DNA of 4,139 nucleotides from a virus. Lineage: Duplodnaviria > Heunggongvirae > Uroviricota > Caudoviricetes. Below the pieces are notes generated by a model. The model was not told the DNA's origin. It made no database searches and worked only from the letters and a program-made list of their open reading frames with translations. The position numbers and the translations under genes are program-made. Shown one piece after another: positions 1 through 4,139 of the stretch; positions within the stretch are counted from its first letter, which is position 1; each line of letters begins with the position of its first letter. The stretch is taken from the IMG/VR virus record IMGVR_UViG_2690316345_000015, positions 1-4,139 of that record, one strand, 5' to 3'.

Positions 1-71
1 GTGCTTTTGCCGTTACGCACCACCCCGTCAGTAGCTGAACAGGAGGGACAGCTGATAGAAACAGAAGCCAC
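1..71 (-). CDS. insA: IS1 InsA, N-terminal fragment (partial; runs off window start)
   Basis: On the minus strand a GTG at 71..69 is followed by GCT TCT GTT TCT ATC AGC TGT CCC TCC TGT (ASVSISCPSC...), the known InsA N-terminus with its zinc-finger Cys residues. Confidence 0.88.
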   Translation of the reverse strand, partial: MASVSISCPSCSATDGVVRNGKS

Positions 72-126
72 TGGAGCACCTCAAAAACACCATCATACAC
101 TAAATCAGTAAGTTGGCAGCATCACC
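1..126 (-). mobile_element. IS1: IS1 insertion sequence, left-end portion (element continues beyond window start). Terminal inverted repeat IRL at 104..126; outer end at 126.
   Basis: Reverse complement of 1..126 reads GGTGATGCTGCCAACTTACTGATTTAGTGTATGATGGTGTTTTTGAGGTGCTCCAGTGGCTTCTGTTTCTATCAGCTGTCCC..., which matches the canonical IS1 left end including the 23-bp IRL as I recall it. Match is from memory, not a database search. Confidence 0.93.
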
Positions 127-195
127 CAGGAACAGAGTTAAAAAGCCGGAACCGGAATCAAATCACAGGATGACCATCTGCCAGTGGCAGGTCAT

Positions 196-221
196 AAAAA
201 AAGGCCGCGCCATGCGCAGCC
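196..221 (-). terminator. Rho-independent terminator on the minus strand: hairpin GGCTGCGC-ATG-GCGCGGCC (203..221) followed by a T7 tract (196..202)
   Basis: Minus strand reads GGCTGCGCATGGCGCGGCCTTTTTTTATGAC: an 8-bp GC-rich stem (one G-U wobble), 3-nt loop, then seven U. It is oriented to stop transcripts coming from the moron region at higher coordinates. Confidence 0.6.
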
Positions 222-407
222 AGAACTCACAAGGAAAATGATAGAAGGAAATAACATTAGTGATGTACGCATGGCGCCTCCCGCTAAGTTCTGCAATGAT
301 CAAACAGAACTCGCTACGTGTCCTTAAAACTCGATCATTTAGCCTCTCCAAGGAGGATTCACCATGCGGTTGATTTTTTAATAAACAGTAAACAAAAAAG
401 TCAAGGA

Positions 408-518
408 TTATTCATTCTGTTTTTTCATCATCGGCCACAGCAATACCACAATGCCGCAGACCAGAGCGCCATCAGTCAGTACCAACATTATCCTGCTGGT
501 GAAATCCATCATCACCAT
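408..518 (-). CDS. Hypothetical small hydrophobic protein (36 aa from ATG at 518; up to 52 aa if TTG at 566 is used): MVMMDFTSRIMLVLTDGALVCGIVVLLWPMMKKQNE
   Basis: Hand translation of the minus strand. Below the 60-aa cutoff, so absent from the ORF track. Strongly hydrophobic with a charged KKQNE tail, and lies between the membrane-protein gene and the terminator at 196..221. No convincing Shine-Dalgarno sequence, so low confidence. Confidence 0.25.
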   Translation of the reverse strand: MVMMDFTSRIMLVLTDGALVCGIVVLLWPMMKKQNE

Positions 519-651
519 CACTAAAAGCAGGATCACAACAGCAAGCAGACACAGTTTATAAAACAATGTTCAGAAAACGCATTCTGCATGCCTAAGGTTC
601 TATTCTTACGAATAGCCAACTTGCAACTTAAAATATTATTTATGCAGCCAA

Positions 652-1410
652 TTAAATTCTGGTCCTTACAATATCAACCTGAAGATTCTTATCTTGTGCT
701 GATTGATAAATGACAAACCTCTTACTACCTGCATTAAAAGAAGTAGACAAAACCAGACAATTATCATAACGAGCAAGAACATAATACCAAGCATCATTAT
801 AATTAATCATTTCATATTCTTTCTTAAACTGAGGTTTGTAATATCCTGTCAGAAATGAGAAGAGCCAGAAATATGCCACAAAAGCAACCATCACAACTTC
901 AAAAAAATGTTTTTTTATAAATGGCTTACCATAGAAGCATGATACCGATAAAAATCGCCCATAAGATCTTATCGAAATTGTAACTGCCAGCGCAATCGCT
1001 GCTGACAGTAGCAAAAGAGGTAACTGAATCTTCTGTCTCAATATAGAAAACTCAATAATTGCCGGCACAAACAATAATTCCACAGCAAAATAAAGGCGAA
1101 ATACATTTAGCTCCTGCATAGAATGTTTTCTTTTCACAGCGAAAAAGAATACAACACCAATACCCCAACCGATAAGAAATATAGCAATGACGATAACTGC
1201 AAAAAATAAACTTCTGACAACATCATCAACACCTGCACCTACAATCCACCATGGGAATCCGTAGTAAAAAGAAGTACCCCAGCCATAGAAATAAGCACTC
1301 CCCCATCCAAGGCATCCCATGTAGGCTATAAAAAGTGAAGAACTCCTGAGCAGTGCACCATCCTTCATAACCACCTCTATACAAGATGATAACATTGGCT
1401 TGAAACTCAT
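652..1410 (-). CDS. Uncharacterised polytopic inner-membrane protein (252 aa; alternative start at Met15, codon 1368..1366, preceded by GAGGTG). About 5 predicted TM helices plus a ~60-aa hydrophilic C-terminal domain. AT-rich moron downstream of Q.
   Basis: Uninterrupted 759-nt ORF in AT-rich DNA, where random ORFs of this length are improbable. Hydrophobic segments approx aa 26-46, 65-92, 105-123, 130-147 and 169-188, with positively charged loops (KRKH, RQK, KKH). Sampled 60-nt stretches give roughly 30-37% GC, against about 53% in the adjacent Q gene. No family recognised by eye. Confidence 0.8.
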   Translation of the reverse strand: MSFKPMLSSCIEVVMKDGALLRSSSLFIAYMGCLGWGSAYFYGWGTSFYYGFPWWIVGAGVDDVVRSLFFAVIVIAIFLIGWGIGVVFFFAVKRKHSMQELNVFRLYFAVELLFVPAIIEFSILRQKIQLPLLLLSAAIALAVTISIRSYGRFLSVSCFYGKPFIKKHFFEVVMVAFVAYFWLFSFLTGYYKPQFKKEYEMINYNDAWYYVLARYDNCLVLSTSFNAGSKRFVIYQSAQDKNLQVDIVRTRI

Positions 1411-1576
1411 AACAAAAGCAATTCAATGCCGTCAAGAGGTTACAGGCTAAAAAACCTCTATTACATTGCAGTCAGCATGTTTACTACACAAATACAATTC
1501 AGAGCATAAAAACTACTCGGCGGCAGGTTATTGAGACTCATCAGTGACAGGTAAAAAATGCCCATTATTGGTGTCA

Positions 1577-1605
1577 AACTTACCCAAAGTTATTCAAAAA
1601 GTCAA
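1577..1605 (-). promoter_or_regulatory. Lambdoid late promoter pR' with Q-utilisation (qut) region: -35 TTGACT (1605..1600), 17-bp spacer, -10 TAAGTT (1582..1577), then a -10-like pause element AATAAT (1569..1564)
   Basis: Minus strand reads TTGACTTTTTGAATAACTTTGGGTAAGTTTGACACCAATAATGGG, which aligns closely with lambda pR' as I recall it (TTGACTTATTGAATAAAATTGGGTAAATTTGACTCAACGATGGG). It lies about 45 bp downstream of the Q stop codon, as in lambda. Confidence 0.75.
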
Positions 1606-1647
1606 TATTATGCCGTTAATATGTTGCCATCCGTGGCAATCATGGCG

Positions 1648-2271
1648 CTAACGTGTGATCGCATTCAAAATGTTGTCTGCGATTGACTCTTCCTTGTGGC
1701 ATTGCACAACCAGAGCGTCATACAGTGGCTTAACAGTGCGTGACCAGGTGGGTTGGGTAAGGTTTGGGATTAGCATCGTTACAGCGCGATATGCGGCACT
1801 TGCTGGCATCCTTGAATAGCCGACGCCTTTGCATCTTCCGCACTCTTTCTCGACAACTCTCCCCCCCTGCTCTGTTTTTGCTATATCAACCGCACGGCCT
1901 GTACCGTGGCAATCTCTGCATCTTGCGCCCGGCGTCGCGGCACTACGGCAATAATCCGCATAAGCAAATATTGCGAGCACTTGCAGTACCTTTGCCTTAG
2001 TATTTCCTTCGAGCTTTGCCACACCACGGTATCTCCCCGATACCTTGTGTGCAAATTGCATCAGATAGTTGATAGCCTTTTGTTTGTCGTTCTGGCTGAG
2101 TTCGTGCTTACCACAGAATGCAGCCATTCCGAATCCGGCTTGTGATTGCGCCATCCCCATAGCAGCCATCACATCAGTACCGGAAAGAGAGTCAGAAGCC
2201 GTGGCCGGTGGTGAGTCGCTCATCATCGGGCTTTTTGGCGAATGAAATTTAGCTACGCTTTCGAGTCTCAT
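1648..2271 (-). CDS. Q: Late-gene antiterminator Q (207 aa), lambda Q type
   Basis: Translation [21 protein letters not shown]...[12 protein letters not shown]...[14 protein letters not shown]... is near-identical to lambda Q as I recall it, including the Cys4 zinc-binding motif. Its start ATG overlaps the upstream phosphatase stop (ATGA at 2271..2268). Confidence 0.95.
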
Positions 2272-2933
2272 GCGCCTTCTCCCTGTACCTGAATCAATGT
2301 GAGGTTTCCGCAGAATACTGCGCCGGTATCGATATACATCTGGTTGGCAAATTTGAGTGGTTTCACTGCTGGCGTATGACCAAAGATGAACGTGTCCGCG
2401 CCTTTGATTTCTTTCACGATCCCGTCTTGTGAGTTGCTGATTCGTTCGCGGTTCCAGATTACCTGCTGATGATCAACTGGCTTTCCAAACTCGTATTCAT
2501 CACAAGGATAATCGGCGTGGCAGATGACATATTTTTTACCTTTGCTCACCAGTTCGATGATTAACGGAAGTTCATCTGCTTTCTGGGCAAGAGCTTTAGC
2601 CAGAATTTCTTTGTCGTAATCGAGATTAAAGAACCAGCCACCGCCATTAAGCAGCCAGTGATTGACGTTTCCACGCTCTGATAAGCCATCAATCATCATT
2701 TGCTCATGGTTTCCACGTACAGCTCTGAACCAGGGGAATGTGATTAATTCCAGGCATTCTACGTTCTCTGTACCGCGATCAACCAAATCGCCCACCGAGA
2801 TAAGCAGGTCTTTTTTGGTGTCGAATCCTATCGTCTCCAGTTTTTTCATCAGGTTCGTGTAGCATCCGTGCAGATCGCCAACTACCCAAATATTTCGGTA
2901 TTTGCTGCCATCAATTCTTTCGTAGATATTCAT
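2268..2933 (-). CDS. ninI: Ser/Thr protein phosphatase, lambda NinI (ORF221 / lambda PPase) type, 221 aa
   Basis: PPP-family metallophosphatase motifs GDLHG, GDLVDRG and GNHE are present. Sequence is near-identical to lambda phosphatase over most of its length; the N-terminus differs slightly (MNIYERIDG here vs MRYYEKIDG in lambda, from memory). Confidence 0.95.
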
Positions 2934-3541
2934 GCAACCTCACTTCTGCTATTTCGCAGGTCTTTGAGTTTCTGTTGGTACTCTGCCTTGATCGCCTTGC
3001 ACTCTTCGATAGTCCAGCGATGGCGGTTATGGTTTGATTCGATTTCGTCTACTGCTTCCTGCCCGATGCGGATAATCAGTTCGACGCGATACGGAACGAG
3101 ATTTCCGCTTTTGTGCTGGTTGCACACCACGCATTGCTTGTGAATATTGCGTTCATCAAATCGGAGTTGAGGTGCCGCAGCAGTTGTCCGGTAATGTCCG
3201 GCATCCCACTGAGCAGACGTGAGCGTTCCGCACGAGATACATGGTAAGTCGCGGTCTCTTTCTCTGATGAAGGCGTTTACGGCTTGTTGGGCTTGTTTAA
3301 TCCAGTAACTGCGGGGCTTTAAGGCGAGTTTTCGAATCTTAAGTTTATCTTTCTGTCTCTGATCCTCTCGTCGTCGTTTCTTCTCTGCTGCTTTTTCCGC
3401 TTTTTCGCGTTCTTTACTTCGTCGTTCGAGTGCTATCTTGGTTCCACACTCTGGAGAGCACCACCACTGATTAGCGAATGCAGGGTGAAACCATTCCCGA
3501 CATTCATCGTTTTTACATCGTCTTCGCGCTGGTTTAGCCAT
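2930..3541 (-). CDS. ninG: NinG / Rap (recombination-adept, structure-specific endonuclease), 203 aa
   Basis: Translation [33 protein letters not shown]... matches lambda NinG (Rap) as I recall it. GAGGAAG Shine-Dalgarno about 7 nt upstream of the ATG at 3541. Its stop overlaps the ninI start (ATGA at 2933..2930). Confidence 0.93.
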
Positions 3542-3594
3542 CGTCTTCTTCCTCGTACATTGAGCTATTCGGATCGCTCATCAGTTCTGTGCAG

Positions 3595-4038
3595 TTATGG
3601 TCTGCCATGGTTTTCATGAAAACCCAGTTCTTTTTCTGCCCTCTTCCTTTCTGCAATAGCGTCAATGATGCTAGCAAATATTCCAAGATATTTGGTGCGC
3701 CCATCTACGCATATATTCGCAATCCACTTACATCTCTCTTTATTGAAATATACTCCAGTCACTCCTGACGAATTGGTTATTTTTCTCTTTTGGTTCTGTG
3801 CATTCTGTTGGTGTGTAACCAATCGAAGATTAGATAGCCTATTATCTGACCTTACTCCATTTATATGATCAATTTTATACCCTAATGGAATCTCACCATT
3901 ATTTATCATCCATATAACGTGGTGAGCATAAGTAATTACACCATCGATAGTTAACATCCTATAACCATCACTCCTAATGTAACCAGCAACACTGCCAACC
4001 TTAACATTATTAGAAGGAGACACTGGTAATGACTCCAA
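3595..4038 (-). CDS. HNH homing-type endonuclease with C-terminal AP2-like DNA-binding domain. The 5' end is disrupted or fused: ORF positions 4025..4038 are IS1 terminal-repeat sequence, so the native N-terminus is probably truncated. Possible GTG start at 4023.
   Basis: HNH_3-like motif (...YAHHVIWMINNGEIPLGYKIDHINGVRSDNRLSNLRLVTHQQN...) followed by an AP2-like segment (SSGVTGVYFNKERCKWIANICVDGRTKYLGIF...). The TTG start in the ORF track lies inside the IS1 IRR (GGTAATGACTCCAA...). Confidence 0.7.
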   Translation of the reverse strand: MESLPVSPSNNVKVGSVAGYIRSDGYRMLTIDGVITYAHHVIWMINNGEIPLGYKIDHINGVRSDNRLSNLRLVTHQQNAQNQKRKITNSSGVTGVYFNKERCKWIANICVDGRTKYLGIFASIIDAIAERKRAEKELGFHENHGRP

Positions 4039-4139
4039 CTTATTGATAGTGTTTTATGTTCAGATAATGCCCGATGACTTTGTCATGCAGCTCCACCGAT
4101 TTTGAGAACGACAGCGACTTCCGTCCCAGCCGTGCCAGG
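4025..4139 (-). mobile_element. IS1: IS1 insertion sequence, right-end portion (element continues beyond window end). Terminal inverted repeat IRR at 4025..4047.
   Basis: 4025..4139 is the reverse complement of the canonical IS1 right end as I recall it (...CCTGGCACGGCTGGGACGGAAGTCGCTGTCGTTCTCAAAATCGGTGGAGCTGCATGACAAAGTCATCGGGCATTATCTGAACATAAAACACTATCAATAAGTTGGAGTCATTACC). Confidence 0.93.
4040..4139 (-). CDS. insB: IS1 InsB (InsAB' transposase), C-terminal fragment (partial; runs off window end)
   Basis: Minus-strand translation ...[32 protein letters not shown] with stop TAA at 4042..4040, the known InsB C-terminus. Confidence 0.88.

Follow-up and report, generated by a model that had tools for sequence, protein, structure and literature searches.

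The window analyzed here, that is, the entire 4,139 nucleotides at positions 1 to 4,139 of the IMG/VR virus record IMGVR_UViG_2690316345_000015 (Caudoviricetes), carries an AT-rich gene on the minus strand directly downstream of a lambda-type antiterminator gene (Q), and this gene encodes an intact protein of the TfpB/STM1630 family. On balance, we favor the explanation that it is a moron encoding a stand-alone inner-membrane protein with a non-enzymatic role in the envelope and in host fitness. The initial annotation of this sequence had described a 252-amino acid (aa) open reading frame (ORF) at 652-1410, which is present on the minus strand as described, and had been unable to assign it to any family by eye. 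An assignment is now available, as the gene belongs to phrog_1521, to Pfam family PF27470 (named TfpB), and to the NCBI "STM1630 family" (the RefSeq name of the 238-aa product being "STM1630 family protein"). The features on which the argument turns are as follows:

652..1368, minus strand: TfpB/STM1630-family inner-membrane protein, 238 aa, matching phrog_1521, with its probable true start at Met15
1406..1435, minus strand: candidate sigma-70 promoter of this gene, recognized as a consensus match
1561..1618, minus strand: lambda-type late promoter pR' with qut site, based on matches to 98 phage records, several of which are annotated "promoter" or "Qut site"

The match to phrog_1521 spans the whole profile (E value 1.4e-150, profile positions 1-222 of 222, ORF residues 31-252), and 101 homologues, mostly 236-238 aa long, were retrieved from 5.8 billion clustered proteins, all of them carrying PF27470. 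An exhaustive hidden Markov model search of 1.84 billion representatives yielded only 72 proteins at E values up to 1e-3, and hence the TfpB/STM1630 family is small. The PF27470 assignment was taken from the precomputed annotation of 97%-identical proteins; local Pfam-A, NCBIfam, and PADLOC scans of the ORF itself returned nothing, in the case of Pfam-A because the release scanned predates PF27470. In the alignments, the protein shows the N-terminal AY.YGWG..YYG(F/Y)PWW motif and the C-terminal YY.L...(I/L)LS...F pattern of the family, and its length falls within the family range (about 236-245 aa). It is full length relative to all family members, which disposes of the concern, raised in the initial annotation, that the ORF might be a fragment of a larger gene such as a Wzy or an acyltransferase. 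The gene is thus neither new nor unassignable: it is intact, and its family has been catalogued before, though with no function assigned. A protein of Acinetobacter baylyi also called TfpB was considered as a relative and rejected, being an unrelated extension ATPase.

The true start is probably Met15 (ATG at 1368), in which case the reading at 652-1410 adds 14 codons. This is suggested by a Shine-Dalgarno sequence (GAGGTGG) preceding Met15, by the length of nearly all homologues (236-238 aa, starting at this position), and by the location of the first ATG of the 252-aa reading within the candidate -10 element.

The position and composition attributed to the gene by the initial annotation were both borne out. 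Q lies immediately upstream (1648-2271), with the pR'/qut segment between the two genes, and the GC content is 36.4% (30.5% at third codon positions, GC3), against 45-51% in the flanks (Q 51.1%, phosphatase 45.5%, ninG 49.0%). A stretch of roughly 100 bp comprising the 3' end of Q and the sequence that follows (1561-1658) matches 98 lambdoid phage records, several annotated with a promoter or Qut site; the segment also aligns locally with the lambda pR' region. These 98 records share the Q/pR' segment without the gene, and 3 carry the gene, which is the patchy presence at a gene boundary characteristic of morons. The deviant composition is a further moron trait, and the gene may also have signals of its own, namely a consensus-like candidate promoter (1435-1406) and, after the cassette, an intrinsic terminator (203-221), both predicted from sequence.

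The same slot, between Q and the holin gene, is occupied in two phages and in many Escherichia coli prophages, including those of O157:H7, in agreement with the earlier suggestion of horizontally acquired AT-rich cargo. The protein gp58 of phage 2B8 (annotated "Phage protein," NC_049952) is 99.6% identical and the product of CPT_434_68 in phage 434 ("putative membrane protein," OL657226) is 97.5% identical; both are encoded directly after Q and before a DUF3927/TciB-like gene, upstream of the lysis cassette. The gene order in both phages is Q, target gene, DUF3927/"TciB," SASA esterase, and holin, and this order, with the esterase gene variably present, was also found in E. coli D1, 2022H047, and O157:H7 SS52 (lpxR, ylcG, Q, gene, DUF3927, and holin in SS52). 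The backgrounds differ in that phage 434 has a Q82-like antiterminator, preceded by lpxR and ylcG, whereas that of the window is a lambda-type Q, and in that phages 434 and 2B8 keep the esterase and lysis genes, whereas in the window IS1 has removed both. Of 5,426 complete E. coli genomes, 682 carry the allele at ≥95% nucleotide identity (median copy number, two), and many of these carriers are O157:H7, O26, O111, and O121 strains. Behind a DUF1133/Phage_antitermQ-type Q, the Q-to-lysis slot holds a paralogue of 67% identity, which adjoins lpxR, pmrD, and the SASA esterase gene. The classic cargo of lambdoid phages at the Q-S hot spot (the stx genes of Stx phages, LT-II, the nanS-p esterase, lpxR, and bor) resembles the target gene in its insertion site, deviant composition, and variable presence but, unlike it, has known activities.

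The candidate promoter, situated just ahead of the Shine-Dalgarno sequence, consists of a -35 element (TTGACG, 1435-1430), an 18-nucleotide spacer, and an extended -10 element (TG-T-TATGAG, 1411-1406). Its core, TTGAC...TTTGT(T/A)ATG, is conserved, in an alignment read by eye, upstream of the copies in phage 434, on a heat-labile enterotoxin (LT) plasmid of enterotoxigenic E. coli (ETEC), and in the iro island, and the latter two keep it without Q or pR'; a regular-expression scan for the candidate promoter in other loci gave no match. Between pR' and the gene, a terminator scan found no clear tR', and the predicted RNA fold of the leader was no better than that of shuffled sequences (z = 0.41). 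The initial annotation had placed the gene under late-promoter control, and exclusive control of this kind is doubtful given the conservation of the upstream promoter without Q/pR' and the mapped promoter that the Salmonella orthologue has of its own. Hence, the gene is probably a true moron, with expression in the lysogen and additional late read-through of transcripts started at pR'.

An alternative is a late-phase function linked to lysis (e.g., in holin timing or membrane state), in which case pR' would be the sole promoter of both the gene and the lysis cassette. All intact prophages examined do have the gene between pR'/qut and the holin gene, where Q-modified polymerase would necessarily transcribe it. 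We nonetheless consider such a function highly doubtful, as the gene is absent from phage lambda and most lambdoid phages (three phage records at the protein level), many copies, like that in the window, have no lysis genes nearby, and distant members reside in non-phage chromosomal contexts.

The predicted architecture of the protein is that of a small inner-membrane protein with a soluble C-terminal domain, as the initial annotation had supposed (about five transmembrane [TM] helices and a hydrophilic, beta-like C-terminal region). An AlphaFold2 model based on a diverse 50-sequence alignment (mean predicted local distance difference test [pLDDT] score 81.5, predicted template modeling [pTM] score 0.75) has five long helices (residues 6-36, 47-79, 84-111, 116-137, and 155-181 in 238-aa numbering) followed by a five-strand beta domain (184-235); an earlier run on a shallow enterobacterial alignment (pLDDT 61) was set aside. 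Hydropathy likewise delineates four strongly hydrophobic segments and a Gly/aromatic-rich N-terminal segment. Lysine and arginine residues number 11 in the N-terminus and loops 2 and 4, versus 3 in loops 1 and 3, and from this positive-inside distribution the N-terminus is predicted to be cytoplasmic and the C-terminal beta domain (~55 residues, SH3-like) is probably periplasmic. The C-terminal part gave weak but recurring matches to SH3-like barrels (the C-terminal domains of KorB and of HIV integrase). No solved or viral structure matched the modeled fold, and a sequence profile search of the PDB returned nothing below an E value of 6.

Conservation across the family points away from catalysis. 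A broad alignment has a single invariant position, G175, with A15, A25, Y26, G37, P39, and Y195 near-invariant; as the family shows neither an invariant polar residue nor a conserved one of catalytic type, an enzymatic role is unlikely. The glutamates that the initial annotation had noted inside predicted helices fared unevenly: that of IIEF (E106) is conserved in ≥90% of the enterobacterial subfamily, those of VELLF and FFEVV are not, and in the wider family all three vary. Conservation is strongest in the Gly/aromatic-rich first helix and the motif that follows at the periplasmic interface (AY.YGWG..YYGFPWW), which would fit helix packing, oligomerization, or recognition of a membrane-embedded partner. 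Pairwise ratios of nonsynonymous to synonymous substitution rates (dN/dS) among full-length phage, prophage, plasmid, and chromosomal copies were 0.10-0.21, even between copies of 45-67% identity, and therefore selection maintains the protein wherever it occurs.

Outside the lambdoid slot, diverged members (45-67% identity) occupy plasmid, island, and chromosomal sites, frequently alongside virulence genes. On ETEC plasmids, a family gene is divergently adjacent (~870 bp) to eltAB, with the genes for the heat-stable enterotoxins STb and EAST1 nearby, all among insertion sequence (IS) elements, an arrangement compatible with an origin of the LT region from lambdoid late-region cargo that IS elements have scrambled. 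The Shigella virulence plasmid pINV carries a member between virA and spa40 in the mxi-spa locus (106 Shigella plasmids); the copy on the invasion plasmid pWR501 (locus L055, 7001-7717) is 57% identical and annotated merely as a hypothetical protein. In the iroBCD island, a family member adjoins bor, and at a chromosomal site common to both species, the family gene neighbors sseJ in Salmonella and lpxR in Citrobacter rodentium. The adjacency to eltAB/STb, virA-spa40, iroBCD-bor, and lpxR suggests a link of the family to host fitness. Every copy examined is AT-rich (29-42% GC).

These contexts weigh against one of the functions put forward in the initial annotation, a superinfection-exclusion or abortive-infection (Abi) effector, i.e., a prophage membrane protein that would block DNA entry or kill the infected cell. 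Such an effector would suit an AT-rich, prophage-borne inner-membrane protein at a classic cargo site, where the neighbors in related prophages include the envelope-modifying lpxR, pmrD, and SASA esterase genes. However, none of the 5027 models of PADLOC-DB 2.0 matched at E values up to 1. The CPBP/Abi motifs, correctly described earlier as lacking, were not recovered by profile searches either, since neither CPBP/Abi (PF02517) nor any other Pfam family matched at E values up to 1, and no His, Glu, or Arg is invariant familywide. Moreover, purifying selection acts on the copies on plasmids, in islands, and at the fixed Salmonella/Citrobacter chromosomal locus, and Pasteurellaceae and Neisseriaceae (Neisseria) members stand alone among unrelated housekeeping genes (hscB, P-II, and alcohol dehydrogenase [ADH]/esterase genes) rather than in defense islands. 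The gene was also found in only 3 of 50,697 phage records at the protein level (phages 434 and 2B8). Taken together, these findings make an exclusion or abortive-infection effector unlikely.

The namesakes of PF27470, the TfpB proteins of Moraxella bovis and Moraxella lacunata, resemble the target in length, in the N-terminal motif (AY.YGWG..YHGYPWW), and in the C-terminal pattern (YY.L...IL...F), and representatives of the Moraxella/Pasteurellaceae type were recovered in the profile search at E values of about 1e-40. They differ in their low identity (~25%) and in their location within an invertible type IV pilin locus beside piv. The pilin inversion region houses the gene in M. bovis, M. lacunata, and M. 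equi, where its neighbors encode a type IV pilin (PF00114, PF07963) and a Piv-type recombinase. The M. bovis copy is intact (261 aa), and that of M. lacunata NCTC10359 (locus L029, 5001-5784) is split into ORFs of 195 and 68 aa by an apparent frameshift.

The Moraxella locus raises the question of whether the protein assists type IV pili or the related machines built on pseudopilins, type II secretion among them. Other membrane proteins encoded next to pilin genes promote pilus assembly, namely Pseudomonas TfpY and Dichelobacter FimB, which, with Pseudomonas TfpZ and TfpX, are inner-membrane proteins of 235-245 aa that, like the target, combine TM helices at the N-terminus with a beta-rich periplasmic domain at the C-terminus, and in which HHpred finds no known domain (PMC11841053). 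Compared by description, however, TfpY/FimB have three TM helices and a periplasmic domain that is larger and composed of two sheets, whereas the target model has five helices and one five-strand beta domain (PMC11841053). TfpY/FimB are encoded next to pilA, whereas no pilin gene occurs in the window, and no pilin or pilus gene neighbors any of the enterobacterial, Pasteurellaceae, or Neisseria members examined; only the Moraxella members have one. The TfpY paper mentions neither TfpB nor Moraxella (PMC11841053), and the searchable literature shows no function for Moraxella TfpB. A pilus accessory role for the target is, consequently, a rather improbable candidate.

A further relative is STM1630 of Salmonella Typhimurium, which is 45% identical to the target over 238 aa, carries PF27470, is AT-rich, and lies beside horizontally acquired virulence genes. 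It differs from the target in being chromosomal, between steB and sseJ, rather than prophage-borne, and in having its own mapped promoter far upstream, where mutation of the -10 box silences the gene; in ST313, two single nucleotide polymorphisms in this box have this effect (PMC6785131). STM1630 is up-regulated in macrophages and has been grouped with the virulence regulon of the SPI-2 (Salmonella pathogenicity island 2)/PhoP type (PMC2639726, PMC6785131), and S1 Text of PMC6785131 reports attenuation of its mutants in both calves and chickens.

According to the explanation we favor, an AT-rich cassette, comprising the target gene first, then the gene for the DUF3927 small membrane protein, and then an STnc100-like small RNA (sRNA) with its terminator, is inserted between the lambda-type Q/pR' and the lysis genes, the latter being deleted here by IS1. 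From its own sigma-70 promoter, the protein would be made in the lysogen, and during lytic growth, Q-modified RNA polymerase starting at pR' would read through the gene. The protein would then act non-enzymatically as an envelope binding or scaffolding protein, possibly as an oligomer, and would alter the envelope and the host-associated fitness of the lysogen rather than block other phages.

Several observations weigh against this explanation. The promoter is a consensus match that a generic promoter scanner did not list, giving a different weak site instead, and the predicted topology is derived solely from the positive-inside rule. The proximity to virulence genes could simply stem from a common origin in IS-scrambled lambdoid late-region cargo and not from a common function. 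In Salmonella, deletion of STM1630 had no macrophage-replication or growth phenotype (PMC6785131), and an STM1630 mutant was hypermotile in one screen (PMC4219756); the mutant was subsequently rebuilt as a cleaner scarless deletion to re-examine motility (PMC4534456).

The silent deletion phenotype is also what would be expected of a functionless hitch-hiker, an ORF kept solely by linkage within mobile DNA, as are the many truncated or frameshifted family copies in databases. The low dN/dS across all full-length pairs, the conservation of length and motifs from Enterobacterales to Moraxella and Pasteurellaceae, and the attenuation reported for STM1630 mutants in livestock all argue against such a hitch-hiker, which we regard as very improbable.

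A bolder variant, which we advance only tentatively, is that TfpB/STM1630 proteins are mobile envelope factors with a new fold that spread horizontally and were repeatedly acquired with signature virulence loci, i.e., in enterohemorrhagic E. coli (EHEC) prophages, on ETEC LT plasmids, on Shigella pINV, in the iro island of extraintestinal pathogenic E. coli, and at Salmonella sseJ. In this variant, they would directly aid colonization or intracellular fitness, possibly via pilin-like or other envelope substrates, the idea of pilin-like substrates being prompted by the hint from the Moraxella namesake locus.

In itself, the gene in the window is ordinary: it was catalogued before, has an annotated counterpart in phage 434, and occurs in about one-eighth of complete E. 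coli genomes. The main interest of the family lies in its recurrent linkage to virulence loci across enteric pathotypes, with members beside hallmark determinants of at least five of them, combined with purifying selection on the protein and a fold that is confidently predicted and has no known solved or viral relative. In Salmonella, moreover, the gene is co-regulated with intracellular virulence genes, and attenuation of its mutants has been reported from livestock models. Defining the function would allow thousands of entries now called "hypothetical protein" to be annotated in the genomes of EHEC, ETEC, Shigella, and Salmonella.

All recognizable genes in the window are on the minus strand and together constitute a lambdoid nin-Q segment. 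Its remaining features are as follows:

1..127, minus strand: end of an IS1 copy; plasmid records match in their thousands, with IS1 family transposase as the annotation
192..397, minus strand: STnc100-like sRNA match (Rfam RF02076), the last element of the AT-rich cargo cassette
203-221, minus strand: intrinsic terminator ending the STnc100-like match, a predicted hairpin with 7 GC pairs and a T-run at 221-203
408..566, minus strand: DUF3927/"TciB-like" small membrane protein, 52 aa, immediately downstream of the target gene (PF13064, E value 1.4e-14; phrog_1470)
1648..2271, minus strand: lambda-type antiterminator Q (PF03589 Antiterm, E value 5.2e-56)
2268-2933, minus strand: Ser/Thr phosphatase of the nin-region backbone (PF00149, E value 4.6e-17)
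2930-3541, minus strand: NinG of the nin-region backbone (PF05766, E value 7e-91)
3595..4038, minus strand: HNH-AP2 homing-endonuclease ORF adjoining ninG and abutting the second IS1 copy (PF13392, E value 9.7e-20; phrog_99)
4025..4139, minus strand: end of another IS1 copy, oriented like the first, matching at least 5000 plasmid records annotated as IS1A/IS1B transposase

Within the cargo cassette, the pairing of the target gene with the DUF3927 gene recurs in phage 434, phage 2B8, and E. coli prophages. The TciB label of the DUF3927 protein was transferred from the annotation of phage P1, and a literature search on the "Tci" naming gave no relevant functional data. The STnc100-like match covers the full length of RF02076 (1-206 of 206) at a sub-threshold score (35.2 bits versus a gathering score of 47; E value 3.5e-5), and the strong terminator at its end follows directly after the DUF3927 gene. 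The equivalent stretch in RefSeq records (loci L003/L004, 5804-6202) is annotated as a plus-strand "hypothetical protein," and the match may represent a prophage-encoded sRNA misannotated as a coding sequence.

At the other end of the segment, the HNH-AP2 ORF is N-terminally incomplete (aligned to positions 132-268 of the 383 in the phrog_99 profile) and has a GC content of 37.4%; the best E. coli prophage matches end at 3594, without this ORF. Homology to E. coli prophages starts at 127/128, where IS1 truncates the prophage on the lysis-gene side, and the best coverage of the window by any complete E. coli genome was ≤84%. As both ends of the window are IS1 termini in the same orientation, the window holds a 3.9-kb prophage fragment between IS1 copies, with the lysis genes cut away at position 127.

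In unrelated lineages, family genes have formaldehyde-detoxification-type neighbors: those of Salmonella and Citrobacter rodentium adjoin genes for an FrmR-like repressor and a class III-type ADH, and the family gene of Mannheimia glucosida adjoins an ADH gene and an esterase-D-type hydrolase gene; this recurrence of formaldehyde genes may be coincidence. Lastly, the paired IS1 ends of the window either resemble a composite transposon or mark the scar of an IS1-mediated deletion; they suggest an IS1-rich host such as Shigella.

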